Shown: positions 30,021-49,023 of the stretch, in pieces
How the letters are laid out: each line of letters opens with the position of its first letter
Numbering within the stretch: position 1 is the stretch's first letter
Translations under genes and position numbers: made by a program
Assembly: GCF_022045235.1 (NCBI RefSeq)
Contig: NW_027266275.1
Coordinates: forward strand, 72,788,001 to 72,852,000
From: Haliotis cracherodii
Taxonomy: Eukaryota
Reading direction: 5' to 3'
Length of the DNA stretch: 64,000 bases
Notes under the pieces: generated by a model
What the model was told of the DNA's origin: nothing
What the model saw: the letters and a program-made list of their open reading frames with translations, nothing else
Database searches by the model: none

Positions 30021-30552
30021 AGTGGGTGATTATCCTTCAAGGAGGGAGTATAAACAAGTTGTCATCATTATTACCTCGCTCATTCCTATGTCAATCAAAC
30101 GATATGTATTTTCTTTACTGTGTGTGTGGTAAAGGACATTTTGAAACAGGAGAAAAGTAACCATGCATATGAATAACCTTTATGATAATCTGGCAGTGCA
30201 ATCCTTCCTATTTCAGTAATGCCGAGAGGGTTTGAATATTTACCCACCCAGAGATCCTATGTGGGTAGATAGATGTCAATATGGCGGGGATAGACATCCT
30301 CACCATTGAAACGATTCAGTTAAATGCAAGCTTGCCCTGCAAATTATGCATAAGTAATGCGGTATATTTCGATGTGCATATTTATGCTGAATAAAATATA
30401 AAAAGACGACCGATGCCACCCAATCACAGTCGGCCATTTAAAAACAAGCAATTTATATAAGTAAGAGTTTCGTCCTAAGAATTACATATCTGTGCAGATT
30501 CGCTTCATTGTTGTTACAACACCACGTAGTTAATGGGTTGTTGACACAAGGG

Positions 30553-30979
30553 ACATGCGCATGTGTCATTACAACTCAGTCTCTAAATACTCTTGAATAA
30601 TCATGGCGTAATCTTTCGGACATTGATTTGTTTTGACAATGTATTCGCCCTTGTTCAGATCAAGCTTCTTATAGTGTTTACAAATACATTGGAAATAAGC
30701 ATGGAAATCAGATTATAACTCCACCTTAAAGTTTATATTATTTTATCGTTATATCAAGATCTTTGTTATTTCTGAACCCATTGGCATTAATACAAACTAA
30801 TACACAACAGCAATTAATCACGTGTTGGTGCTAATTGTAACCTTTCTTTAGTTCATTTAATAAGTAAAAGTTCCCGATTTTTTTAAGCCATTGATGATGC
30901 TTTTACATGAAGTCATTCTATATAAAATGTTATTACGAGAATAGTTTCGTTATCACGTGATTTGCGAGACATGCGCATG
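30553..30979. promoter_or_regulatory. NRF1-type palindromes and E-box in the inter-promoter region
   Basis: ACATGCGCATGT 30553-30564, TCACGTGA 30953-30960, CATGCGCATG 30970-30979. Confidence 0.5.
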
Positions 30980-31589
30980 AAAGGCGACATTTAACAGAAG
31001 CCAGTGGACGTAATGGGCCTGATGCCGATATCGGCCTCCAGGCAGGCCTGTCAGCATAGCTTTGAATACTGACAGAATCTGTTGATTTCGGCAATAATGA
31101 TGTCTCGGCACCGGTGCTATGTAGATACTCTATTTTGAGACAATTTGAGTGTGTATTCCTCAAGCAGATTCTGTGATATACGTGCAATCTTTCCAGGGTA
31201 GGAAACTCAGCCATTTGAATTCCTTCTGAAAGGTGAGTTGCCTTGCTCTGCCGTGTTGAGGGCTTTTACTTCTGAGAATGCAATCTTACTGAAGTGAAAT
31301 AGTGCATTTATATTGTTAATCATATCCAAAGGCTTTTGGGGTATAGCATTTGTTATGTTTTGAGTGTTTACAAGGCTGTTGTTGTGAAAAAAACATATGT
31401 CTGCATTTCGCAATGCGGGTAAGGTGTCGGTGAGGGGAAGGTGCCCCCTATTTTCGAGCTCAAAAGCTCAGCAAATTGGCCTCAGCTGTGTTTGCAGTAT
31501 GTTGTTTAGGTAGTGATCAACTTTATTCTTGCTGTAAACATCATAACCTACTTAGATGCATTTTGGGTAATGTCAATACAAACAACATT

Positions 31590-31720
31590 CACTTCGAGGA
31601 TCGGATCAGACAGGTCGCCATTTTTGTTATGGGCGGCCATGTTGTAGAGTGGATTGACTTCATTGAAAATTCAAGATGGCGTTTCTGCCGATGCATAGTT
31701 GGTCCGGGGCGTCTTAAACA
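31590..31720 (+). promoter_or_regulatory. Probable TNRC6 core promoter / TSS region
   Basis: Locally CpG-rich with three YY1-type motifs: CGCCATTTT 31616, GGCGGCCATGTTG 31632, CAAGATGGCG 31672. The T-rich intronic skew begins just downstream. Confidence 0.6.
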
Positions 31721-32286
31721 ATGTGCATAACCATTTTTGCACAATTAACTGCTATTTTATATGTTTTAGTAGGAAATATGCCGCCAAAACAACAAATCGT
31801 ATAAATTTCATCCCCCGAAGCACGAGTGGCATTTTGCCAAAACCTCAAATGACCCAGACTCAGTTATGTCATGGCCACCATTGACATGGCCGAACATAAA
31901 ATATCATTAGAATCGGACATAATTTTTGATGCAGAGAATTTCCTCTGATACTATGTCTTAGAAAATGAAGTAATCATAACTAGGTGACGTATCTCTTATA
32001 TGTTGCCGAGTTCAGAATTGAAAATGTTTTCTTTTTTTTTCAAATGTAGAACAATGAAAATGAAAACATAATGTTTTCTTGGGGCTGACATGTACGAGTT
32101 TGGTTAATGTGACATAGAATCTAACAGGAAAGGTTAGGTAGATCTTTGTTTAGTTTTAAGATAGTTTTATTGGAAATTTATTCCAAATAATATATGTATA
32201 TTGGTTAAAAAAGACCCTAACATATTTTTTTTATGTTCCTGATCAGCTTATATTTACACAGCTTTTGATTTTCTGTTTTGTTTCAG

Positions 32287-32346
32287 CTGTTATCCAAAGA
32301 TCTTTCATCTTGCCTTGCAGTATAATCAACCTGATCCTGTTATAAG
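32287..32346 (+). other. TNRC6: TNRC6 5' UTR exon (60 nt; alternative acceptor at 32321)
   Basis: Long T tract + tttcag| ... AAG|gtgatt. Confidence 0.6.
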
Positions 32347-32750
32347 GTGATTCTTGAATAAGCTTCCTGTAGTTGAAAATGTATGTTTGATTATCTTTTC
32401 TTTTTAATTTGTATAATACATGTTCATGAATATATTAGCCGTGGGGTACATTCTTCATTATGTTAGGGTTTGGAGACTGTCAGAAAAAGCCATTCCGTTA
32501 CCAGCAGTGGTATGAAGTAGAAGTTACACATTTTTAATGATCATTACACAAGATTTGGCAAGACTTCCAAATCTTGGAAATCTGCCAACTAGACTAGGAT
32601 TAGTGGGAATACTTCTGGGAAGACTAGTTAAATTCTTTAATCAGACCACTTACAAAGTAATCAGATGTTTTTCTTAAAGGTGTAATTTTGATATTTCTAT
32701 TTAAATTTTGGGTTGATTTTGAGTTTTAATTATGTTTTCATCATTTGCAG

Positions 32751-32811
32751 GGTTTAAATTCCATTGCCAAATCGGAAGATATTAGCACTGCCTTTCATAT
32801 CTAATCTCAAG
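32751..32811 (+). other. TNRC6: TNRC6 5' UTR exon (61 nt, stops in all three frames)
   Basis: tttgcag| ... AAG|gtaagt. Confidence 0.75.
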
Positions 32812-33170
32812 GTAAGTACTAGTCCAAATTGACATTGTCTGTCTCTTGGAGTATTCATAATAGCGCCTTTCTAGTTATCACAGCTTGAGTAACCTGACTG
32901 TAAAATTATAGACAATGTGTAACACAGATTGTGAGAGTACCCTGCATCTTATTTTACCAAACATCTTGGGGTAAAATTCTCAACCAGACTATTGCTGTTA
33001 CCAGTTCTGTGCAATCCTATTGGCATGATACATACTATTTATTTATAGTTAACTGAAAGCAACTGCTTATTTGCAATCACTCTTTGGAACTATGTGGATA
33101 TTAGTGATCTATTGTTCTTTGGCTTTTTGTGTTATCATGGCTAATTACAGATTTTGTTTTTGTTTTGCAG

Positions 33171-33195
33171 AACCATAATCAACAGTCATTAAGAG
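33171..33195 (+). other. TNRC6: TNRC6 5' UTR micro-exon (25 nt)
   Basis: gctaat branch-point-like site, tttttgttttgcag| ... GAG|gtgagt. Confidence 0.75.
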
Positions 33196-33854
33196 GTGAG
33201 TATCATGTGTGCTTTTTCAGTATAATAGTTCAGTTCAATGTAATACAGGGACAGTGCTAGGCGTGGGCAATTATTGGGTTACTAACTGCCCATATAGTAC
33301 ATTTTTTGATTTGACCAAACAATATGACATTTGAGAAATCATGAAATAAAAACCGAAATTTGCCATAGATGTTAAATACATATTTACTCAGGAGCTTGTA
33401 ATGAGGGACCAAACCTAAAAAAACCTATCCTATTGCGTCTAACACATGTAAAAGGGACACTGGTGCCCAGTCAACTAAATGCACAGAAATCTATTGTAGG
33501 TTCAAATATCAGATAATCATTGTTTCTACCTTTGTCAGCACCACACCAATGCTGTTGGGTTTCAAGAATATGGTAAACATCCAAGAACTGCATCACTTTG
33601 GGCTTTTCTCCCACATCAAGCTAACATGATTACTGAAGCTGCGTTAAAGAAAGCGAACACCAAATAGGACAGTGACATTTGTAGACTGTTGGCCAGTGTG
33701 TTGTAGCTGTTAGCAGCACGCAGTGTGAATGATAGATATTTCATCTAGGAACAGCATATGATGCTAATTTTGTAATGCAATACAGGGTTGTATTGTATTG
33801 AGGTACAAGGGATTATTGTATGATAAAACCATCGTTTATTTGGTGTATGTTATT

Positions 33855-33993
33855 CAGTGTTCGAAATTAAGCATGACACTCCCAGAGTCCTTGTCATAAC
33901 CCTCGTTAAAAGTTAATGATTTTAATGTCACCTAAATGAAAATGCCACAGAAGACCTCAAGAATCCTAGTTCTTCCTTAATTTCGAAACACTT
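33855..33993. mobile_element. Short MITE remnant
   Basis: CAGTGTTCGAAATTAAG ... CTTAATTTCGAAACACT inverted termini. Confidence 0.55.
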
Positions 33994-35416
33994 TTATAAG
34001 TGGAGTCACAAGATCTATTGCAGACAAATGAGAGAATTTCTTGAGATTGTGGTTGTGTTTAATGTATTAATTGTAGCCAAGCACCCTCTAAAATGTACAT
34101 AATTACTTACAATACATTTACTTAAATACACTTCCAAAGGGGCAAGAATGAAAATACTCTGTGCAAAATAAGTCCCTCAAATATTAAGGTTATCTGTTGT
34201 TGCATAGTAAATTGATTAATTTATTGTGATATAGCTGTTTTATGATATGCTAGTCTGTCCCAAAGAGACACCTGAGTTGTTTGTGGATGGTTATCATCCA
34301 CTAACTTTTGACATTTTCAACTTCTCAATCTCATTGAACTGAAGTTGTTTATGAATATTTTGATTGCAGCTCCAAGTTGGGTCCCATGTATATTATCATG
34401 AATGTAGACTAACATCGTAAATGAACATATATTTACAGAAAAATGTTGTTTAAATTATAGTTATAAAATATAATAAAAAGGAGCCCAGAGACTTTCTTCA
34501 ATTCCTGATACTGCAGGAATCTAGACTTGCTAAACAATATAAATTTTCATGGGCTGTATTGGATATATTTGTTTCAGGTCCTGTATGACAAACTATCATG
34601 AATGGTCAATTTCAAATTGTCTCCATCAAGAGTTTAGTTTGATTATCATGAGAACACTAATCAAAAGAAAACAAGACAAAATTGTGTGTAGCTTATGTGC
34701 AGTGTGGCCAATATGAAATTACGCAGATTTTGTTTTTTAATGTTATCACTTTTTAGAGACTGGGGTGACTTGTATTTCACTGATAACTGAAGAAGTTTTG
34801 ATGCTTAGTTTTACATTATTGCATTGAATGCAATATTAAAATGAAATACCTCTTCAAGAAAATAGGAACTTTAAAAATATGAATTTTTGAACAATGATTT
34901 GTTTTCGAGTTGTTTCCCTGCTAAATGTACTAAGTTTCTGATCCTAGATAAACCACTGTCTGTACATAGATGTAGAAACCAGTGGCAACCTTTGGGCTTT
35001 GGTCATGCCTACAAGTGTGTGATATGTTTCTTCTCAAAGCCGCAAGTCATTTCGAATTGTTTCCAAAAGTATAGTTTGGTTTCCATGAAAACCCTATAAA
35101 ACTATTTGAGAAATGATTTACTTAAAGACTTTGATATTTAGTACAATTAGTATCACTTTAATCATGAAATGTCAACCTCAATAGATGCTTTGCCACAGTA
35201 TAAGACTAAGAGAATAATCCTTTCTCGGTTAATTAAACTTTGTGAAGCCAAAACATCTAGATCTACTGAGGTTTTTTTCCAACAGGTATTCAAAGAAACA
35301 CCTTACCCCTTTCCTCCATGCAAAGAAACACAATTATCCTCACAAATTTATTACTTTTCATTTCACTTCCTATTTATGTGTTTAATATGTCAGTACACAT
35401 TTTCTTTATTTTTCAG

Positions 35417-35458
35417 ATTTCTTGATCTGCTCGCCATTGTATTTTTTGTTGTGCAAAG
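35417..35458 (+). other. TNRC6: TNRC6 5' UTR exon (42 nt)
   Basis: ttctttatttttcag| ... AAG|gtagat. Confidence 0.65.
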
Positions 35459-36072
35459 GTAGATATTTTAGTATATTCTATATATTGTTCTGAAGAGTTT
35501 TTGAATAATTCATGGTGATAGTAAACTTTCAAACTAGTTTGCAACTTTACGCTGATGGTGTCATGGTACCCTCAGTGTCATTAACAGAATCTCCTTTCCT
35601 TGAATTGATAATAGCTAAATATGACCTGCAAGGTATGCCATAGATTGAATCAGATTAGAGCAATAAATTTGAATTTGTCTTTTATCACAAGATGGGTTGG
35701 CTAGAAAAAAATTTAGTGAGTTTCACCTTAACGCATAACAGAATTGGATGGATGAGGGTTTTGAAAAACATAGGCCAGTTATTTCATTGTGCAAAAGTTG
35801 ATAGATTGGCATGATTGTCGAACTGCTTTCATATGTTTGCATTCTACTTCAAGGGAAGGGTTCTGTGAAGAAAAAGTCTCTTTAAACAAATGACATGAGG
35901 GTTATTCTTAGTAGATGACGAGTAACCATAGTTTTCAAGTATTGGATACTATAATTTATTTTACCGGATTTAAAAAATAAATATTCTAATAGATAGTAAA
36001 GATCTCAGAGGTTTTAGCTTAGAATTAAAGATTAAAGACATCATTATATTACACTGTTATTTTTTTTTTCAG

Positions 36073-36111
36073 ATCTCGTGGGTCCATGCCATATTCTTTC
36101 AACATTTCATT
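36073..36111 (+). other. TNRC6: TNRC6 5' UTR exon (39 nt, upstream ATG)
   Basis: poly-T-cag| ... ATT|gtaagt. Confidence 0.72.
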
Positions 36112-36350
36112 GTAAGTTGTTACTTTATGTTGAAACATTGATGTTCTCCAAGCATTTATTCATTGACCCCTGAGAAATGCACAATGCCCCCATTTCTGAT
36201 AAATATGACTCGCATGACCATCAGTTTCTAACATCAGTTCCATCAATTTCACAGTTACTGCTTCTGTTAACTTGAATCATGACTATTTAGATAACGATCA
36301 TGATAGCTTTGTGATTTACATTGTCTGACAAATTCTTTTTTTCCTTCCAG

Positions 36351-36409
36351 ATTTTTGTCTAGTTCAGAACAATGCAAATTGAACCTTGCTTTGAGGTTGT
36401 GTTGTAAAG
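36351..36409 (+). other. TNRC6: TNRC6 5' UTR exon (59 nt, uORF MQIEPCFEVVL*)
   Basis: ctgac branch-point-like site, tttttttccttccag| ... AAG|gtgagt. Confidence 0.78.
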
Positions 36410-36745
36410 GTGAGTTATGATAGAACTAAAAATATTTTATCAGTGCTTAAATGACATGATTTTTTGTTATAGGTGCCATTGGCAATAGTTCATGTTTTTA
36501 ATATATTACACTTACAAAAATTGCTCTCTCGGATAAATTAGAACTTTTGAAAATCTATGTCAGGGATTAAGGTATTGATATTATAGTTTTGCCATTAAAA
36601 CCCAGCTTTAGAGTCAAGTGTTGTAACAAGGGAATAAATATAACATTTGTGTTCTTACTTGTAGCATGTTTGTCTGTATTTACATTAGTTGTTGATATTG
36701 TGAATGATATGCTATGAAATGTATTCTAAGATTTTCTTTTATCAG

Positions 36746-36823
36746 ATTGCATTCCAAATTGAGGGCAAGCACATTGAAGCATTCTCTAGCTAAGACAAAT
36801 CAGTCAAAGTGCCTAGCTCTCGG
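36746..36823 (+). other. TNRC6: TNRC6 5' UTR exon (78 nt)
   Basis: ttttcttttatcag| ... CGG|gtaaga. Confidence 0.72.
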
Positions 36824-37638
36824 GTAAGAATCTTACTGATGCCCTCACTACATACTTTTTATGTAGATATTAGCGCTCTAGCCATACTGATAATCCTGTG
36901 TGGAGACACAGCTAGAAAGGGTCCCCAGTTTTTAGCAAGAAGCGACTCGATAAGATTGGATTGTCGGTCTTCGTGACTTAATTGTCATTGTACCCTGATT
37001 TGTGGGATGATACTCATAAGATCAGTCACTGGTTTGTTTGGGATTAAATTATTATATAGCTGTAATATTGCTGACTGTATTGTGAAAACATAACCATACA
37101 TGCTGGTACCCTCAGATAAAATTTCATGACTAGCTTTTCAGACTTTTTGATCAGTTATAGAAACATACTGAACTATTTATCTACTTTGTTTTAAAGCGTT
37201 CATGCATGATCTGATCAAATTGGACTTGTATACAATAAGTCTTTGCAATGGAATTGATTTCATTTGAGGTCCATTGATTATGACCCAGAGAAGTCCCAGC
37301 CAAGTGCTAAGCTGGTTCAACACAGAACTTTTCTTTTTAAGGAAATGGGAGTTACTGAATCCTTCCAACAAAGAGGGAAGCTTACTACTTGTTTTCACAA
37401 TAGCTGGTACGTTGTGGTATGGTTCATGCTTTACATTGTTTAGACTTAGATACAGGGTTATTGCTTACACTGGAAAGTTAGCTATATCAAGTATCATGGT
37501 CTTTGTTCAGTAATCTTCCATCAATTAAGTTATTGCAATATTCATGACTACTTTGAAAGTAACTTTACCTTGTGGCCTTACCTTTGTATAATAGGCAGGT
37601 AAATGGAGATGTATTTATGTCAGTCATCTTGTTTGCAG

Positions 37639-37755
37639 ATTGAACAAATTACAATTAACTCAAGATCAATCATCGCTTGCTACAAACTACTCATTGCTCC
37701 TTATCAACGAAGTACTCACCAAGCCACGATTCCCCCCTGAGCTGGTCACAAAGAC
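37639..37755 (+). other. TNRC6: 5' UTR part of the start-codon exon
   Basis: gtttgcag| acceptor; same exon as the ATG at 37756. Confidence 0.7.
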
Positions 37756-37765
37756 ATGCAAGAAG
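37756..37765 (+). CDS. TNRC6: TNRC6 coding exon 1 (M-Q-E-G; 3' end of exon 37639-37765)
   Basis: gacATGCAAGAAG|gtaagc. In-frame TGA lies 15 nt upstream of the ATG. Phase 1 matches the next exon. Confidence 0.72.
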
Positions 37766-40700
37766 GTAAGCAGGGTTAGAAACTAACAGTTTCAGTCCAC
37801 TACTCCTTATTATGATAACAAATATCAAAACCCCTAAAAATGGCAAATGTCTTCTAGTCCTTATGATACCATTACTATTGGGCAGTTTGGCAAGGACTAG
37901 TGCCAATTTCTAAAGCAGGTAAGTCAGCTGAAGAAGTAACTGCAATTAACATTTATGTCTATCTTTCACTACCATTTTGTTTGCTTGCTTCTGTATACAC
38001 CAGACTGTTAAGCAATCAAGTCAGAGATTTGTGTAGGATTTCAAATTAAGTGCCCCTGGCAGGCAAATTGGAAAACATATATCATTATTTAAGTGTAGAG
38101 GCATGTGAGCATTGCATTTAATACAGTAGTGACAAAGCCTGTTTATTTATCCTGTTATCAGTGAACTACAAGTAGCCTACACAAAGCCATATATTAAAAC
38201 TATTTTTAATTTTGATGGACGTTTGCTCCAGACTTGATGCTTAATATTAGTCTCTGAGCAGGTCTAAATACATCCCTAAAGGTAAATGAACATTTGGTTT
38301 GTGGAATAATCAAATTGTGACTTGTAAAAGTATTGATACTCAAGTATTATAGGGTATTTGCTGCACTGATTACTACTCGTGAAAGTGTTGAATCATCCAG
38401 TTAGACTCTGTTCTGTACATGCAACCTATTTCGACATTAACAGTTTCATTGTTGACAACAGGGGGTAAAAAGACTGGTAATCAATGGGCGTCTTCAGCGT
38501 CAGCAGCAGGGGGACTGGGTTGGTGTGAAGAGGATGATGGTGGATGGCGTGAGGGACCACCTGCTACGGGTAGTGGTTGGACAGATCCAAGTGAGTTCTA
38601 CAATAAGGCCAAAATATTTTCTTGGTTGTCAGGCATGTCCACAAAAACTGCCCTTGAAAGCATTTAAGTTCTTTCTACCCAGTACAAATTTTTGGAAATT
38701 TATTTGCCTGAGAACCAACTTTTTATTTTTAAGTCTTACCTCAAAGTGTGTTGAATATTGCTTCATTAATATTAGTTTTGCGATTAGTCTTCTGCCTCTG
38801 AGATAATAATGAATGATGTTCTAGGAAATGGTCATAGTTGGATCAAATCATTTGTGGATGCAAGGCTTTTGGAAATAGTGAATGAAAACATCCCTTACCT
38901 CAAACAGTAATGTGTTTGAGTGAGAATCCCGCTTGACGTAAATTAATTCTATCATCCCTTAAGGAAATATAGTCCTATTTTGTCTCTGTAAGGTCCAGCT
39001 GCAAACGACAGAGGTCAGAATATAGGAACCTGGCACAATCCTTCCAAGGACTGTGAGTGGAGCCAAAGCTCAAGTGTTAATAGTGTCATTGTGGATTCCT
39101 CAGATAAAGAAGCTTGGCCGTCCATTGGGAACTCTGAAACTGCGGGCTCTGATGCAGGAGATGATGCTGCATCTGTCAAGTCCGGATCTGTGATATCTAG
39201 CTCAAGTAGCCATGGTCAAAATCAGGAGACCAATCAGGGGTTAAGTGCCATGCAGAGTCAAAGTGCTTCCAATCCATGGGGAGCCAATTCCACACTTGGT
39301 GGACTTGAATCAAATCCTTGGGGGATCAGGGATCCTCCCAATTCCTCTGCTGCCAATATGAATCCTATGAATTGGGGTTCAAGTAATCCGCATCCAAGTC
39401 TTTCTATGAACAACCAAGGACATAATATGCAAGTTGGTACCAGCATGGCTGGTAGTGATACTCTATCAAATTCTATGAACTCAAACTCCTCCACTTCCCG
39501 TTCAGGATGGGGGATGGGTGCCCCAGGCCAGGGTAGCCCAAGACCACAGAATTCCATGCAAATGCAAACCTCAAATGGCAACAATATGCATGGTTTGATG
39601 CTTAGCAGTAGCGGTGCTCAACAAAGTGGACCTCCAGTGAGTGGCAATCAGACAGGGCCTTCAAATAATCAAACTCCATGGCAGGGTAGTAGTGGGTCTG
39701 GTATGTTTGGTGGCATGACTACGTATTCCAAACCCCACGAGTCTGGCTGGAATAATCCAACAAGTGCTGTGATGAACAATTGTGGGAAAGATAACAGTGG
39801 CAATAATGGTGGCCCGGATGGTGCGGGCAACGGCTCCAGCATGTGGGGCACACCAGACGCGGCCCCTAAGTCTGGCTTTTTGGGAAGTAGTGGGTGGGGA
39901 GAGTCCCTACCTCCCACTCCACAGTCAGCAACCCAGTGGGACAATAATTCTAAGTCACAATGGGGGGACAACCCCAATGGTGCAGCCAATAGTCAGGGAT
40001 CAGGCAATACAACTGAGTTCATCTCATGGGCTCAAGCTGCATGCAAGGGCTTAACCCCAGGCAGCGGCAATTCAGGGACCGGGCAACCCTCTGCTGCTGA
40101 TGCAGCCGCCCAATCAGGACAAGTTGCTGATGATTTCATCAGACAGGCCATTGAGAACCATGATGGGTGGGGGGCGAAACCTGTCAAACAGGATACAGCC
40201 TGGGATGTCTCAGAATCACCAAAGACCAAACGCAAATTTTCTACCGATAGTGGTGGTGGAGCTTCCAATGTGTGGAACAATAATAATGGAACGGCAATCT
40301 GGGAAGCTAGTCGTGACAGTAGCTCTGGAGGTAATGGAGGAAATGGTGGCAATGGTGGTGGCGGCGGTGGCTGGAATGGTGCATCAGGTGGATCTCAGTG
40401 GCAAAACGAGAATGATTCCAATACTTGGAATGGCCCACCAAATAAGCCTGGAGCTGATAACCAATGGGGTGGTAACGGCGGAGGAAACGGTGTTGGCAGT
40501 GGCGTTGGCGTTGGCGTTGGTGGAAATAGTGGCCTTGGTGGAAATGGTGGCCTTGGTGGAAATGGCCTTGGTGGAAACAGTGCTGGCAATGTTGGAGTTG
40601 GTAATGTTGGAGTTGGTGGAAATGGTGCTGGCAATGGAGGTGGAAGTTCTGACAAAACCATTGGTACCTGGGGCGGAGGCTCGGAAACCTCAAGTATGTG

Positions 40701-43700
40701 GGGTAACAAGACCGAGACAGGATCTTGGGGATCTTCAGGTCAGGATCGCGATCGTGGATCTGGGTCCCAGTGGGGAGATAATCAAGATTCTCAAGGAGGC
40801 TGGGAAGATGCAGCAATGCAGCGTCGGCGTGTTGATAATGGTACAGGTTATTGGGGCGAGCCACAGATTCAGCGCCCACAAGGCTGGAACAGTCAACCAA
40901 GTACCCCAGCAACTCCCCTGACCCCACGGCCCAAGCCTGAACAGCCTGAGTCTTGGAACAAAGGAGCACCTGTCCAAGTTCCGCCACCAGCACCGACAGG
41001 TGGAATGGGTGGTGGTGGAATGGGTGGTGGCGGAATGGGTGGCGGCGGAATGGGTGGCGGCGGAATGGGTGGCGGCGGAATGGGCGGCGGCGGAATGGGC
41101 GGCGGCGGAATGGGCGGCGGTGGAAATGTTGGAGTTGGCAACCCACCGAAGGCCTCTGGATGGGGTGACCTCTCAAACTCCAACATGAAGGTTGATGATG
41201 GAACCAGTATTTGGGCAGCTAATGCCCAGCAGCAGGTTAGTGTTCATTTTGTTAGCCGAAATCACTGTTAGGTAATACAAGTATAAGAGAGCAATTTTAT
41301 CAGCATTAGCCCTGAGGGTATTTTACCTTTGTGGACATTTCATTACATAGTGTAATTATCTTTTTTTCATGGAATTATTTTCTTTGTATTATTCCCTCAG
41401 GATACCAACTTGTGGTTCTGTTGAAGAAACACTATCCAATCTTCAAGTGCTGTGTCTGATGCTTTTAAAATAAAATACCTTTGATTGTTGAATAGCTTAT
41501 CAACATAATGATATACCCTACCTTGTGTTCCAGGCCCGAGCTGGAGGTTGGGGTGACCCAGGGAGTCAGTGGAATCCCACACCTGGTGCCAAGCCAAAAT
41601 CCCTATCTACCTCGAGTTGGGGCGGAGACGGCGGTGGAGGTGGTGACCAGAGCTGGAACCTGAGAAAGGTTTGCTACGTTTCCTGTATTGCCCTTATCAC
41701 TATTGGTTAATGCCCATTGTGCTTGCAGACACGAGTGCATTGTGGCGGGTGTTGTAGCTGCTTCTCAGTTGATTGTTGTCCGACTCGGCCTCCCTCACAG
41801 CTGGGCAGGTGTAGCATGGAGACAGCATGGGAAGACCGTGCACAGCCCGTCTTACTTGCATGTCCCCGTGTTCCACCAAGTCTTCATTGGATATTTGAAA
41901 ATTTGGAAATTTTGGAAACAATTTTTGTTTTGGAGTTAAATATATTATGGTCATGAATAGTCTAATGGTCATGTGCACAGTTGTCTTTTCATCATTTCAT
42001 TTGCATGCTATTATCATTCATTTGTTATGTTTATATTAATCATTTAGTTCATCTGTACATCATCAGTCCACCTGATCATTCAGATGGGTTAATGCCGTGG
42101 GATGTCGTCAGTCATGTGAAAATCATTTCATCTTAATTTGCTCATTGAAATGGTCTCCTCAATATTCGTTCTCTTGAAGAGGTTTGCCAGGAAATTGAAC
42201 TAATTAACATGTACAACATAACTTAAGTCAATATTCCAAAAAATCCACATAAATAACAGTTTGCTCACAGTAATGAAAAGATAAAATCATTGACAGATTG
42301 TTTTGGTAAAAAGATACAAAGCTTGAAATACTTTGCCCTGATTGCCTTCAGGATGATTTCATAAAGTATATCCATGTTATTCATGCTATTTTTTTACTGT
42401 GATTTTAATGTGGTATCTAGATAAACATTAGAAATCAGCACTTATCTTATTGTCCCAACTTTTTTTCTGAATGACTATATCATAGGACTTGAAGAAATGG
42501 CTAAAATTCTGAAGGTTTTCCTGTATAATATATTCATGGGTTAACAGCTGTTAAATGTTCTTTTGGACTTAAAGAATTGTTCACTCATTTGTGATACAAT
42601 AAGCTGTTTATATGAAAGAAATGTAAATTGGGGGTTAAGTTTTAGTTTTGTGAATGTCCTAGTAACCAAATCACATGGCAGCAGTACAGAAAATGAGCAA
42701 TGCATTTGTTAGAAACTGTGACCACTGTGGATTCTTGTGTTTAAAAGTGTTCCTACAGTTTGAATTTCCAGTCAATAACCCATATACCTTTCAGTCTACA
42801 TTGATGTTTTGTCACAAATATATTAGCCTGAAAAATGTTGAGATAAGAGCATCCTTCATTCATTGCCAGGCATTAACTAATACTCTTTCTCCATAATATA
42901 GCATTAGTGCTAATACTCTAACTCCTCATGAGGCATCACATACCTGAATACCTCAACATTGGTGTCAAGGGAATTAGTTCTAGATTGTGGACATCTTCAG
43001 TTTGTTTGCTCTTGTCCCAGTTCATTGTTCTGAGCACCCTCTATACAGGTTCATGTGACGTTTTCATGACTCTGGACATCTTATGTTTATGGCTTAAATC
43101 ATCCTTACATTTGTGGCTTAGTATTATTCATACTAGATTTAGGTCAACTGTGCACATGGTTAAATCTGGTAAACTGTTACTCGACACTTGAGTGAAGCAT
43201 CAGTCTGTCTTCTTTCTCTCTTCCCTGTCCCTCCTCTTCCTCCGCCCTCCCTGCCTGTGCTGCTCCCCACCCCCCTTGGATTGCGGCCAACACTTGTATG
43301 TTGCTGATGGTGATTCTTGCAGCCGGGCTGGCCAGATGAGAATGCAAGCAATTCAGGCAATGTGTGGGGTGGTGAAACCGAGGTGGGATATTGGAATGAC
43401 ATTTCACAAGAAAATAGTACATGGAGCAGTGCCCCTGGCTGGAAAACCAAAAAGAATCTGGTGAAGGTATACTATCCCTGGAAAATGTGGGCACCATGAG
43501 ACCCCGTCACTTCCGACACCGTCCTTGTTCTAGCTCACACTAGCATAGCTGCCTGCAGCTCAAGTTGTACTGCCAGTACACTAGTCACAAGGCTCACCTT
43601 TACCATCATTTTGTTACATGCTAGATTGCTTGTAGTACAAATCTTACAGAAGTCATTTCATGCCTTTTGTAAGGTCTTAATGCTCATCCGTTCTTTGTTT

Positions 43701-46700
43701 GCAAATGAAATGAATAGTTAATGCTTTGTATTTTTCTCTAATCTTTAATGTTTTTTTCATTTTTGACACTGAGGCAACCATTTCTATTTCCCAAAATCAT
43801 TTTAATAAGTTAAGTAAAGGTAATGTTGCTGTGTTGGGGTGAACATGTTAACTAACTGCAGTGTTATAGTTTGGTTTAATTTTGTTCCTCCCTGTCATCC
43901 CAGTTGTATGGGACAACAGTGATTGAAGTGGCCCTCCTGTGCCAGGGATAACATTGGAGCTTGCAACATCGCACAATGTACAGTGTCTCTCTTGCTATTA
44001 TGCTAACATGATACATATATCTGTCTGCACGTTCTAACCCACATTTATTGTTCATGCTTTGTCATAATTTTTTTTTTATCAGCACATTGCTCATGCATTT
44101 CATCTTTTACGGAAATGAAAATTGATGTTACATGTTCAATTACAGTTGAAAAACGATTGATTATTGATTTGTTAAGTTGTTTTGTAGCATACTTTCATAA
44201 AGTGTTTTGTTTTGTAAGCATTTCTATTTTGTGAAATGATTGAATCATGGAACAGTTTTTCAGTAGTTCACAATTATTATGTCCTGGGCTTTCTTACAGG
44301 GTCCTAACAAATTCCCCACCGGCAACAATCATCATCCCCAGATGAGAAGCAAATTGCTACAACAGCTGATGGATATGGGTTTCAAAGTAGGTGTTCTCTT
44401 CCTGACATGTGCTTAATGAAATTCACTAAGATTAGCCATAGTGATATAGGTATCAAGTTGTTTGTCCAAATGGTTATTAGTAATGTTATGTCAGGGCATC
44501 TTTGAGAATAGTTGTGCCATTGTTTGACAAGGAATTTCATACCAAGTATCTTTGTGTAAAGGCAGACTTAATTAGCTCAGTTCATACTAGGGGTGGGGGG
44601 CTCTTGAATTGAAAAGAGCTTTTAGAGACAGGTAATGTCTTATTACACAAAATAATATCGTGATACCAGGATGTATTTTCAAAGTTTGAGCTAGTTTAGC
44701 AACATAATCTCTGGACTTTTAATTTTATGTATAGTCACAAAAAAGTAACTAGTATATTGATTTATGGCGGTGGGACAGGCTAGTGGTTTAAGCTTATGCC
44801 AAAAGCCTGGGTTAGATTCCCCACTTTGTTACAATATGTGAAGCCCATTGCTGGTGTTCTCCACCATGATATTGTTGGACGAATGCTGAAAATGGTGTAA
44901 AACTTTACTCACTTGCTCACTTTATGTATAGTTACCAATACTCTATTTGTATGGAAATTGTATTTGAAAGCCTCATCTATTGTTACTTACTGTTATATCA
45001 AGAAGAGATTTGTTTAGGTATTCATAAGATGTACAGAAATTTGATGTAATTTACTTCTGTTTTAACCGAACAACCCATCTATCATTTTTTTACAGAAGGA
45101 AGAAGCTCAGAATGCCTTGATTAGCAATAACATGAATGTTGAAAGTGCCCTGGGTAAGTAGCTATGTCTTGGAATCCTTTACATTTGGATTCATAATTGG
45201 GTAGTTTTTAAAAATTCTTTGGGCCTGTTGGCAAAGGTCTCATTTGTCATGCTGAAGCCCCGGTTCAATGCCCCACATGGGTATCAGGGTTGGAACTAAA
45301 CTCAAAAGCTTGACGAGCTTGATTTAAAGAAAAAATGCCCTTGTGATGTTTAAACAATGGGGAAATTTGTACCAGCCCACTAGAATTTGTACTAGCCCCA
45401 GTCTAGCAGGATAGTGTTCAGTTCTAACCCTGGTGTATGATGTGGGAAGCCAACTCCTGATGACCCTGTTGTAATATGGTTGGAATATTGCTATGAGCAA
45501 CATAGAACCCTATGAACTAAAAAATACTTTCGTATAGCATTGCATGTGTTCGCCATGATTACAGTGAAGGAAGTTCTTGGTGTTATCCATGCACATACCC
45601 CATGGTACATTCCAGCTTGGACAGTAATTTCAACATCTGAGAAGGTAATACTTTTGTTTCAGCTGATCTAATGGCCAACAAGAAGGATGCCGACATGGAT
45701 GTGTTCATGCCAAATAGTGCAAAACCCCGAATGCCTGGCATGATGCCTGACAATACCATGGTTAACGATGACATATCAGATACTCAGTCTGAGAGCAATC
45801 CACATGTGCCTAACATTAACATGCAAAATACTCCCTTTCAAAATGCTCAAGTACCAAATCAGCCATTTGTGACCATATATGACCGGTCTAAATCGGGACC
45901 TAGTCTGCCCCCATCTAGTCTGAATCCAAATAACCCCAGTATTAATCCACAATCATTGCAACAAAAACTCATGCAGCATAAGCGTCAACAACAGCAACAG
46001 AACCAGTCTATGAATTCAATGAGTCCCACCCAAGGTCCTCTGACCCGAGGACAGCTGCCGAACACACAGGTGATGCAGCAACAGATGGCGCAGCAGCAGA
46101 TTCTGCAACAACTGCGACTGGCAGTACAGTCTGGCCTCATCAGCCCTCAGCTCTTGAACCAGCAACTGCCACACAACATCCTGGTGCTCCTGCAACAACT
46201 GCTACAGCTGCAGAATGTCCTGCAGCAGCTTGTTAACAAGCAACAGTTCCTCCAGCAGAACAAGATGATGAACATGATACAACGGCAACAGGTGGAACAG
46301 CTGGCAGTCATGATCAACAATATCAAACAGCAGATACTGCAGCTGCAGAAGCAGCTTTCTCAGGCACAGCAGATCCTGCTCAAAAATCCCGGTGGGGCTG
46401 TAGGGGCCGGAGGTCCCATGGCTCAAGCTCCAGCGGCAGGCCCACATATTCAAGACTCAGTTGATAACATGATGCCCATTCAGAATGAGCTCGAGAAACT
46501 TGCCATCAATCCACCTCAAGTGCAACAAACGTCCCGCCTTAACCAGTGGAAGCGCCAAACCCCAGACAAAGAAACCGCTGGTGAAGTTGGAGAAAACCTC
46601 AATAAAGCTGTTGGAAGCAAACCTCTCCAGCAGTCACAAAATGGCCCGCCTCTGGGGCCATTCTCTGATCTCAGTGGCCTAAATATCAGTGGTGATACTA

Positions 46701-49023
46701 CTTGGTCTACACAAGCAACCACCTCGTCTCAGAATTGGCCTTCTACTAGTTCTGGTGGAACCACATCACAAGCCGAGACAAAAGAGAGCTCTGAAAACAA
46801 AGAATCTCACCCACCAATTACCACATCCAGCACTCCGACAATCAGTATGACAGACATCATCCCTGAGTTTGTTCCTGGCAAACCATGGCAGGGGCTCACT
46901 AAGAGTGTTGAAGATGATCCCCATATCACACCAGGAAGTATTTCCAGGTCGCTAAGTGTCAATGTTGTGAAGGATGACTACCTGAATAACTTGGCGACAA
47001 GCATCAAGACCAGCCCTATAGTGGCTGCTGACTCGTCCACCACTTGGAGCATGAAAGGAAGCCACATCTCCACCACAAGTTCGTCCAAACCCTGGTCCAC
47101 ATCTGAATCAACAACGCCCTCCATGTCTGATGTATGGAGCATGCCTCCAAAGAACCGCCCTCCCCCTGGCCTCATGGCGCACAAGTCCCACCACTGGCCT
47201 GCTGGTGTCAACAGACAGAACTCCTGGGCTGGCAGGACAGACAACTCAGCATTTACTCCAGGTAATCTTTATTCCTCTATTCACTTGGTGATGGGTATCA
47301 AGCTTCTGCTTCCTGGACTAACTGCAAACCTTCATGTGACTTGTATTTGTTCACGTCAAGGTTTAAGCCCTTTTTTAGCAATGCTATTTAATAGTTCTCT
47401 TTTCAAACCTTAATCTTTCAATTATAACATTCAACATCTATGTGAGCTGTTTTGAAGGTAAGAAAAACATTTTGGACTTTGGTATAACTTTCTTTTGCTT
47501 CATAAGTATGTGAATTTTATCCACAAATGCACCTAGTGGACTATTTATGCGATCTGATATTTGCCACCAGTGATGCCTGATTATAACTACCACCACTTTT
47601 AACTACCTTTCTGCTTGTACCACCCCAATAGTCCCCCTCTGCCTTCTCATCTCTGACATTGACACTTGCTGTCGGTCGGTCGGTGCAAGCTAGAGTGGGG
47701 TATGCCTAGTGGACCAACCAGTGTAATGGTGGAGACTATCGGGGCGGGTGGGCCTGCTGCTCTGTATATTTGGCAAAGCTTTGCAAATTGCTGTGAGACA
47801 AAATCTTATTGTGGGTTAGAGGTGATTGGTGCTGTCTTGTGAAGCTTTTGACCTCTTGTCTTACAGTGAACGCTCAAGGTTGGGATGGGAGAACCCCTAA
47901 TACCTCCACTTGGCTGGTCCTAAGGAACCTCACTCCACAGGTAGTAGTTGTCTTGTAGTCTTTAACTTGGTCACAACTTGCATGCCAGGCTGGGATATGA
48001 ATCATTAACTATCATGCCATTGGTCCGTTCGTTACCTGTCCCAAGTCCATCTAGCCTGGTTACTGCAATCTTTTAACCATAGTTCCATCCCACAATACCA
48101 GCTGTGTCCATATTGCATGCTCCATTCTCAACTTCTTCACATTTTGCTGCCTAGTGCTTGCTAGAGGTAAAATACAGCTTTCTATTCTAATTGGCTGCTA
48201 AAATAGTGCATTAGTTACTTTAATTAGGAAATTGAGCTGCAATATTTGGAGATGGCTGTTGTGGGCTTAGTCAACTTTCACATAGTATCTTAGCTTGCTT
48301 AATCCACACTTCATCAGCTTTTAAGTTGGGATTTGGAAGTTCTTTTTATATTTTTGTTTTCATGCATACATTTAATGATACTTTAATTGGTAATCAGTCC
48401 AAATGCTTTTTTGCCACAGTGTTGGCGTATGAAGTCTTTGATTTTGTCTTGCTTGGGGTTTGTCCCTTACAATTAAAATAAATGTTCCTTTTCAGATTGA
48501 TGGTTCCACACTTCGTACTCTGTGCCAACAACATGGCCCACTGCGTCTGTTCCACCTTAATCTCAGTCAAGGACAGGCAGTGGTCTGCTACAATTCCAAG
48601 GATGAAGCCATTAAAGCTCAAAAAGCACTTAATACTTGCGTTCTTGGCAACACCACCATTCTCGCTGAATTCTTGTCTGACCAAGAGTGTGCTCATTTCC
48701 TGGATCAGCATAGCAATTCATCCAACAACCCTAGTCAGTGGTCACAAGGCCAACAGGTGTCCAACTTCCAGCCATTGCAGCAAGCACCCCCTGGCCAGCC
48801 TGCCGTACAACGCTCCACACAGCCGTCCTCCGCTGCTAACCCTGGGTACTACCGCAGCGAGTCCACAACTCCGTGGAGTGCCATGCCAAGTCGTGGAGGC
48901 ATGGGAGGGGGACAGCCTGGTCCCGGCAACATGTGGAGCTCAAGCTTGTGGGGGGGAGGGGCAGTAGAGGATCATAATTCCAACCCTTTCCTTAGCAATA
49001 TATTGGGAGGGGAATCCATGTAA
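37756..49023 (+). CDS. TNRC6: GW182/TNRC6-family miRNA-silencing scaffold (gawky orthologue), 10 coding exons, about 1668 aa
   Basis: Exons join in frame with GT-AG sites (5007 nt, divisible by 3). Family motifs appear in the expected order: [56 protein letters not shown] ([30 protein letters not shown]), Q-rich region, SRLNQWK, PAM2 [20 protein letters not shown] ([26 protein letters not shown]), C-terminal ILGGESM. Confidence 0.96.
38462..38590 (+). CDS. TNRC6: TNRC6 coding exon 2 (GKKTGNQW...[10 protein letters not shown]...GSGWTDP)
   Basis: acaacag|GG acceptor, CCAA|gtgagt donor; GW-rich translation; phase 1/1. Confidence 0.85.
38993..41235 (+). CDS. TNRC6: TNRC6 coding exon 3, large GW/WG-rich Argonaute-binding region
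   Basis: Open frame after the TAA at 38989-38991. Acceptor at 38993, or in-phase alternative at 38999. Donor CAG|gttagt. Confidence 0.93.
40998..41124 (+). repeat. Coding 15-bp repeat (GGGGM)x8 within TNRC6
   Basis: GGAATGGG(T/C)GG(T/C)GG(T/C) units. Confidence 0.95.
41534..41668 (+). CDS. TNRC6: TNRC6 coding exon 4 ([13 protein letters not shown]...QSWNLRK)
   Basis: ttccag|GCC acceptor, AAG|gtttgc donor; 135 nt, phase 0/0. Confidence 0.9.
43323..43466 (+). CDS. TNRC6: TNRC6 coding exon 5 (PGWPDE...VWGG...GYW...[11 protein letters not shown])
   Basis: ttgcag|CCG acceptor, AAG|gtatac donor; 144 nt, symmetric phase 0/0. Confidence 0.85.
44300..44386 (+). CDS. TNRC6: TNRC6 coding exon 6 (start of UBA domain, ...[11 protein letters not shown])
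   Basis: ttacag|GGT acceptor, AAA|gtaggt donor; 87 nt; MGF UBA loop. Absent from the ORF track. Confidence 0.92.
44766..44921 (+). mobile_element. Family D SINE in a TNRC6 intron
   Basis: tagtggtttaagc ... gggttagattcccc ... tgtgaagcccatt ... ctcac tail. Confidence 0.75.
45096..45153 (+). CDS. TNRC6: TNRC6 coding exon 7 ([22 protein letters not shown])
   Basis: tttttacag|AAG acceptor, CTGG|gtaagt donor; 58 nt, phase 0/1. Confidence 0.92.
45221..45515 (+). mobile_element. Family D SINE interrupted by a 148-bp MITE (45285-45432)
   Basis: SINE halves join across the insert. Insert TIRs CAGGGTTGGAACTAAAC / CAGGGTTAGAACTGAAC; flanks GGGTAT / GTGTAT. Confidence 0.7.
45663..47261 (+). CDS. TNRC6: TNRC6 coding exon 8 (Q-rich, SRLNQW motif, PAM2, P-GL)
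   Basis: tttcag|CT acceptor, CCAG|gtaatc donor; PAM2 at about 46858-46893; phase 1/1. Confidence 0.95.
47867..47940 (+). CDS. TNRC6: TNRC6 coding exon 9 (VNAQGWDG...[10 protein letters not shown])
   Basis: ttacag|TG acceptor, CAG|gtagta donor; RRM first strand; phase 1/0. Confidence 0.93.
48496..49023 (+). CDS. TNRC6: TNRC6 last coding exon (RRM and W-containing C-terminus)
   Basis: tttcag|ATT GAT GGT TCC; stop TAA at 49021-49023. Confidence 0.96.

Follow-up and report, generated by a model that had tools for sequence, protein, structure and literature searches.

An untranslated leader of abalone GW182 that probably descends from a lost J-domain coding region

The closest described relative of the system reported here is the cnidarian form of GW182, a core microRNA effector, which in Nematostella carries a DnaJ (J) domain (PMC3840309, PMC4615383, PMC5314787). 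In the parts of these sources available to us, the domain is stated to be absent from bilaterian GW182 (PMC3840309) and from every other homologue, with no N-terminal extension found in invertebrates (PMC4615383), and repression is mapped to the protein's C-terminal part, with no function given for the J domain (PMC5314787). According to the available part of a further report, a separate J protein acts with Argonaute (PMC11194074), and the available parts of two others hold no mention of DnaJ (PMC4793324, PMC6155107). We analysed 64,000 nt of the abalone Haliotis cracherodii (GCF_022045235.1, NW_027266275.1:72,788,001-72,852,000, forward strand; hereafter the window, whose positions are used throughout, all features described lying on the plus strand). 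Here, an untranslated leader of ten spliced exons (779 nt with its cassette exon) lies ahead of GW182. Two of these, exons b and c, are matched by the J domain of this type of protein, the product of the same gene, but unlike in cnidarians the abalone J region is untranslated and broken.

Alternatively spliced exons carrying upstream open reading frames (uORFs) and conserved poison cassette exons exist in RNA regulators. The abalone cassette exon is like these, an optional and conserved exon of a dosage-sensitive RNA regulator that puts in an early stop ahead of exon junctions. It differs in lying in the leader, not in the coding sequence, and in being a putative control element. The long isoform TNGW1 of vertebrate TNRC6A is alike in having a 253-amino-acid (aa) N-terminal extension ahead of an internal start Met, and differs in that vertebrates translate this extension, in which the available part of the source reports no J domain (PMC4615383). 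Coding sequence of a conserved regulator has likewise gone untranslated in Meis, where, in the available text, exon 12b serves as 3' untranslated region and the coding of exon 10' was lost repeatedly (PMC3140891). In the abalone, unlike Meis, the untranslated part is a 5' chain. Its exons, about nine in number, are constitutively non-coding, can still be recognised for what they were and show conservation at old wobble sites. Conversion of coding sequence into untranslated region and uORF-bearing cassettes are both known kinds; the proposed 5' fossil leader of GW182 appears unreported. Our literature search, with most subscription journals outside its reach, found no report of a bilaterian J-domain GW182 or of a fossil leader.

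We consider it probable, from sequence comparison, that the leader is the decayed coding start of a J-domain and coiled-coil region, kept by selection as RNA, with an optional uORF exon as a dose switch. GW182 of the ancestral type begins with a J domain, a linker, a coiled coil and the motif PRE[VI]PPRF, and the retrieved mollusc proteins begin at the internal MQ just after it. The leader exons would be what is left of that extension, in collinear order and disrupted by frameshifts and stops. Loss of coding would predate the divergence of limpets and abalones and probably fall in the mollusc stem, with the internal Met taking over as start.

Splicing of the leader

The gene was identified from the open reading frame (ORF) 38992-41271 of its large coding exon, which has 84% identity to the TNRC6C-like protein P0001 of Haliotis asinina. 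P0001 has Pfam matches to UBA, M_domain and RRM_1, and its N-terminus, MQEGGKK, corresponds to ATG 37756. Membership in GW182/TNRC6 is supported by further matching ORFs in the window (45641-47413 and 48442-49023). The start-codon exon is single copy in the 1.18-Gb genome.

Splicing was read from contigs of seven runs in five studies, taken from 14 runs guessed to be RNA, none of them recorded as such; the guess is backed by GT..AG joints. The runs were handled in two sets of four: all 12 joints were seen for one set, and for the other the strongest joints, with 19 weaker ones left out. Contigs lose rare variants, and rare exon skipping could escape them. In 7/7 runs, exon a (31000-31232, 5' end approximate) was joined from 31232 to a chain of seven micro-exons, b (32287-32346, 60 nt), c (32751-32811, 61 nt), d (33171-33195, 25 nt), e (35417-35458, 42 nt), f (36073-36111, 39 nt), g (36351-36409, 59 nt) and h (36746-36823, 78 nt). 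After 36823 the transcript continues either with the cassette exon (37342-37406, 65 nt) or directly with the start-codon exon (37639-37765), and both forms occur in 7/7 runs. The joint 37765>38462 to the second coding exon (38462-38590), which matches H. asinina P0001, was seen in 4/4 runs of one set.

An original prediction made from this sequence had proposed the seven micro-exons and the start-codon exon, and these are real: a splice-site scan recovered all seven with AG/GT ends, and their joints recur in every run. It had named as tests the linkage of these exons to 37639-37765 and a start far upstream of 37639, and both held in the contigs. Its model was that newly arisen non-coding micro-exons are included combinatorially, build different uORFs and tune GW182. 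The exons do exist, as do two exon-spanning uORFs, but no micro-exon skipping was found among all 12 joints of one set or among the joints listed for the other, and the whole chain lies on single unbranched contigs in X7 (489 nt) and X10 (445 nt). Micro-exons b-h are constitutive, not combinatorial, and among the 12 joints shown only 37342-37406 is alternative. The depletion of upstream ATGs (uATGs) and the coding descent of exons b and c, described below, also speak against this model, which is very unlikely. A weaker candidate exon at 32050-32132 is used by no listed joint (all 12 shown for one set). The transcript does not begin near 31670, as had been supposed: its start is near 31000, where contigs of one study begin (31000 in X8, with adapter ahead, and 31003 in X1; contig ends are a hint only), and contigs of the runs examined give no cover at 30300-30799.

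Probable descent from a J-domain coding region

In the GW182 of the nemertean Lineus (P0011, 2122 aa), the mollusc start (KMQQGGKK) is preceded by a J domain, then a linker, then a K/E coiled coil and finally PREVPPRF. A query with its residues 1-380 found 12 proteins among 7958 scored candidates; these include Lineus, Owenia, Ptychodera, Branchiostoma, Nematostella, Rhopilema and Xenia, and no named mollusc. A profile search added further cnidarian members and J-protein paralogues. The ancestral-type N-terminus (J domain, linker, coiled coil and PRE[VI]PPRF) is present in a nemertean, an oweniid annelid, a hemichordate, amphioxus and cnidarians, and Pfam DnaJ scored above the cut-off in 5/5 J-type GW182 proteins tested. 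Among bilaterians, the N-terminal DnaJ domain is intact in P0011, P0017, P0018 and P0020 (nemertean, oweniid annelid, hemichordate and amphioxus, respectively), and the published view of the GW182 J domain as cnidarian-only is contradicted by these proteins. In chiton, limpet, Gigantopelta, scallop, oyster and abalone, every annotated isoform begins at MQ or MH. GW182 of the annelid Paralvinella (P0016) has no J domain as annotated, which suggests repeated loss. Separate proteins (P0085 of Saccoglossus, P0167 of Mercenaria, and P0150) carry a J domain that leads into a similar basic motif and an 'EQR.REKEM' coiled-coil start; they are likely a paralogue sharing the N-terminal module with GW182 and surviving in a bivalve. 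The bilaterian J-domain GW182 makes the role of the domain in loading of the RNA-induced silencing complex testable, by comparing amphioxus, Owenia and Lineus with J-less relatives.

We back-translated the alignment of GW182 N-termini to a nucleotide profile and scored the leader against dinucleotide shuffles; a nucleotide profile was used because neutral decay acts on bases. The whole spliced leader exceeded all 300 shuffles in 6/6 settings (z 5.3-7.2), with a collinear alignment. Exons b and c together scored 38.0, compared with 12.4 in shuffles, a score reached by 0/500 shuffles and 0/1052 genomic windows; with Lineus left out of the profile 0/500 shuffles reached the score, and with cnidarians only 2/500 did. 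When 151 J proteins were scored singly against the leader, Lineus GW182 came first (33.3), and 133 other J proteins scored 16.5 +/- 3.4 (maximum 25.6). Exon b, the putative remnant of helix II of the J domain with the HPD loop, had an anchored global score of 19.2 versus -9.4 (0/1000 shuffles), and exon c, the putative helix III, had z 7.7 against its own ancestral segment. There is no open J frame in the leader: exon b is frameshifted and its HPD motif is broken (YNQPD), exon c reads SIAKSEDISTAF and then a stop, and no start codon lies in frame. The similarity could have arisen by chance or from a fragment of an unrelated DnaJ gene, and the protein-level null and the weak signal past exon c, both given below, would suit this. 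However, neither the shuffles nor the genomic windows reach the score of exons b and c, the best of the 151 J proteins is a GW182, and the place, the order and the first exon border are right; we regard such an origin as scarcely credible.

The signal is weaker beyond exon c. Anchored scores of exons e, f and g were reached by 115, 33 and 31 of 1000 shuffles, exon e being a weak match to a 46-nt ancestral post-J segment, and exon h had z 2.0 against its own segment. Exon f equals a GW182 cassette exon of Owenia and Lineus (Owenia isoforms P0017/P0070) in length (39 nt) and in its first two codons. Exon d had z < 0 for every ancestral segment. Exon a and the region 31670-31740 showed no match to ancestral residues 1-20 (298 and 117 of 300 shuffles). 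Ancestral exon borders were inferred from the amphioxus gene model, the Owenia cassette isoform and a genomic fragment; when shortened or split versions of the linker after the J domain were sought, one hit came up in 849 candidates, a 70-aa fragment used for exon borders only. The sizes seen and inferred are, in nt, 60/59 for b, 86/102 for c+d, 42/46 for e, 39/39 for f and 59/95 for g, and in this comparison of shared intron positions, with borders from isoforms and gene models, three sizes agree and two do not.

The start-codon exon carries a further candidate relic. Its main frame reads IPP*AGHK where relatives have [VI]PPRF..K, followed by ATG 37756 and a phase-1 donor after MQE; the in-frame TGA, which the original prediction had noted, lies six codons ahead of the ATG. 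An in-frame [IV]PP followed by R or TGA occurred in 18/20000 shuffles (a post hoc count), and the local alignment was matched in 15/300. IPP* is likely a relic of PRE[VI]PPRF, the TGA being aligned to Arg and derived from a CGA>TGA change. The exon border after MQ[QE] is common to Lineus, Patella and Gigantopelta isoforms. The TNGW1 extension presumably keeps the PREVPPRF motif.

Several results weigh against descent from the J-domain region. Aligned at the protein level with frameshifts allowed (averaged BLOSUM62, strict penalties), the leader scored 21.5 versus 21.5, with 434/1000 shuffles reaching it. The relic was unseen among the listed matches of a tblastn search of the window with four J-type N-termini, and searching the genome with the N-terminus of Lineus left it unseen too, returning only ordinary DnaJ loci. 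Exons d-h together were reached by 22/500 shuffles, d and e alone were non-significant, and single-exon tests against Lineus were all non-significant. One of 162 leader-sized genomic windows, a repeat, exceeded the whole-leader score. Among the singly scored J proteins, Owenia GW182 fell outside the top 22, and the top seven hold only the Lineus and Ptychodera GW182. The sizes of c+d (86/102) and g (59/95) misfit, and the ancestral borders come from protein isoforms and gene models, not from DNA.

Weighing these results, we conclude that exons b and c are very probably a fossil of J-domain coding sequence, and we think it likely that the whole leader chain is a fossil of the GW182 N-terminal extension. 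The collinear alignment supports such remnants in b and c and argues more weakly for e-h and the start-codon exon; none is detectable for a and d. Most of the coiled-coil part is lost. The original prediction had ruled out an N-terminal extension on the ground of stops in all three frames of the 61-nt exon and of the in-frame TGA, both of which are indeed present. This stands for the leader as it is today, untranslated, and does not stand for its origin, exons b and c matching the J domain.

Nucleotide constraint and the cassette exon

Comparison with related organisms indicates that the leader is conserved. Among the variants listed, X1 has one substitution in about 776 leader nt versus 63 in 3549 nt of eight mostly intronic pieces (P 1.5e-5), and X8 has one in 779 versus 20 in 1412 nt of intron pieces (P 2e-4), the leader counts resting on absent high-depth rows and on listed pieces without differences. 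Divergence of the intron pieces is 1.4-1.8% (X8, X1) and coding-exon pieces differ by 0.3-0.7% (9/1352, 8/1959 and 4/1458). X7 has no substitution in the covered chain, only a deletion of 1 nt at 37667, in non-coding sequence of the start-codon exon; this deletion is present in both organism-B runs examined. Constraint on the leader is as strong as, or stronger than, that on the coding exon.

A deeper comparison is provided by an ab initio gene model of the limpet Lottia (P0004), whose residues 1-101 are a translation of leader exons. This annotated N-terminus is an annotation error, a mistranslated non-coding leader, from which the limpet leader can be read. Exon c matched the model with 37.0 versus 12.9 (0/300 shuffles), and the cassette, from the first base of the exon and including its ATG, with 26.8 versus 12.5 (0/300). 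Exons g and h with the cassette were reached by 0/500 shuffles, g and h alone by 28/500, and homologous text of exon g is present in the model. Exons a, b, d, e and f found no match in the model, which probably lacks them. In two blocks of exon c, 26/26 positions fixed by Lottia residues are identical (the blocks were picked from the alignment, post hoc); 14 of these are third positions of the old J frame, with 14/14 testable positions identical. The limpet/abalone split is Palaeozoic. The constraint is on nucleotides, because the old wobble positions are shared with Lottia across a split at which saturation of synonymous sites is expected. Within exon c the two blocks are out of register by a net 2 nt, and the J frame is therefore broken in Lottia too. 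The sequence comparisons show a leader that is non-coding and yet constrained at the nucleotide level. Two points count on the other side: X1 and X8 come from one study, with variants being those listed, and the Lottia evidence is a single ab initio protein model. With descent of this kind, the locus would be an unusually readable example of coding exons becoming a conserved 5' leader; regulatory RNA that arises in this way escapes ordinary protein searches.

The leader might instead still yield protein, either as a non-AUG micropeptide or as a J extension restored by RNA editing, frameshifting or TGA read-through. A 63-codon stop-free frame runs from exon c to g in the frame of LPFISNL in the Lottia model, and the TGA of the start-codon exon comes after CCC. 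However, at 63 codons this frame is shorter than the mean of 76 in shuffles, the RNA contigs are identical to the genome and show no editing, and several frameshifts and stops interrupt the J frame. The net 2-nt difference in Lottia exon c and the 37667 deletion common in organism B also argue against translation, which we consider highly improbable. Read-through or a +1 frameshift at CCC-TGA, presumably a suitable context, was rejected as a candidate, since the reading frames upstream are disrupted and the Arg of PPRF lies opposite the TGA in the alignment.

The leader is poor in start codons. With the cassette it has 8 uATGs where 17 are expected (P 0.0005), without it 7, and the seven micro-exons have 2 where 7.9 are expected; uATGs are depleted, not enriched. 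Five lie in the first exon (31013, 31022, 31097, 31100 and 31119) and were missed by the original prediction. The other two constitutive ones start exon-spanning uORFs that form on the spliced sequence as had been predicted: 36086 in exon f opens a 33-aa uORF in weak context, which stops in exon h (ending at 36762), and 36372 in exon g opens an 11-aa uORF. The leader does bear uORFs, but with uATGs depleted relative to chance the chain is no uORF array. A third proposed uORF (13 aa, 31676, in a YY1 motif) lies in intron 1 and has three amino-acid-changing differences in the related organisms' runs X1 and X2. The uATG at 36372 is compatible with the Lottia model, and 36086 and the exon a uATGs lie outside its cover.

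The cassette exon adds a different element. Its uATG at 37345 has purine at -3 and G at +4, a strong context, and opens a 20-codon uORF whose TGA is created by the splice to 37639, 116 nt ahead of the main ATG. The stop ends at 37639, 126 nt ahead of the next junction, a distance of more than 50-55 nt that fits the geometry of nonsense-mediated decay (NMD). The start of the exon and its ATG are kept in the Lottia model. Through scanning, re-initiation and NMD, a strong-context uORF with an early stop would be expected to lower main-ORF output. The constitutive 33-aa uORF has the same stop-before-junction geometry, and the exon-skipped form already carries uORF stops upstream of junctions. Ribosomes scanning the leader would pass or re-initiate after its uORFs, and inclusion of the cassette would lower GW182 synthesis and could expose the transcript to NMD. 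We give about an even chance to the cassette 37342-37406 being a regulated switch of GW182 dose. The dose-tuning idea of the original prediction survives only for this exon, which it had not listed. For the level of the core microRNA effector in molluscs, this conserved exon and its ATG are a candidate point of control.

We also considered whether the exons are fossils with no regulatory role, kept by splice signals and ATG avoidance, in which case their loss would disturb the mRNA and the cassette would be splicing noise. The depletion of uATGs and the constitutive splicing fit this view. So do two further results: Rfam gave 0 matches at E <= 1 in 30500-39000, with no known snoRNA or miRNA in the leader introns, and 17 folding windows had z from -1.3 to +1.8, with the whole leader at the shuffle mean and no signal of stable structure. 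On the other hand, constraint on the leader at least equals that on the coding exon, blocks in mid-exon and the first bases of the cassette with its ATG are common to Lottia, and both cassette forms occur in 7/7 runs. A role-less fossil is unlikely. Between related abalone-type organisms the exons are far better conserved than the introns. Under the preferred reading of a leader kept by selection, the constitutive micro-exons would be maintained for exact splicing, for their poverty in ATGs and probably for protein-binding sites. The strong nucleotide constraint makes a regulatory role of the chain probable, as had been proposed.

A broader scenario can be put forward tentatively, with somewhat less than an even chance of being right. 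J-domain GW182 would be the ancestral bilaterian form, and the exons, switched off in the mollusc stem, would have been frozen almost at once as a regulatory leader that is readable hundreds of millions of years later. The uORF cassette would set the dose, possibly within a feedback loop, and other J-less lineages would carry similar fossil leaders.

Further observations at the locus

The large GW-repeat coding exon (38993-41235) has an alternative acceptor at 39104, used in 3/4 runs, by which the GW region loses 37 codons; this form equals H. asinina isoform X2. Within the exon, at 40499-41113, the length of a glycine-rich repeat differs between organisms, and all listed changes are multiples of 3. 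In X1 and X8, which share a study, contig depth drops from the leader (31000-36823) to the coding exons; this may reflect library bias or short leader transcripts and is unusable as a ranking.

A scan of host DNA in metagenomes with exon c gave three matches with no splice flanks or neighbouring similarity, which we attribute to chance. Immediately upstream of the inferred transcript start, at 30953-30979, are palindromes resembling E-box and NRF1 motifs, and intron 1 has four words similar to the YY1 core at 31618-31740. Unspliced low-depth contigs cover 31461-31861. Short transcribed elements, highly repeated, lie in the leader introns at 33584-33626, 34450-34500 and 37800-37900, where they appear in hundreds of contigs with loose ends.

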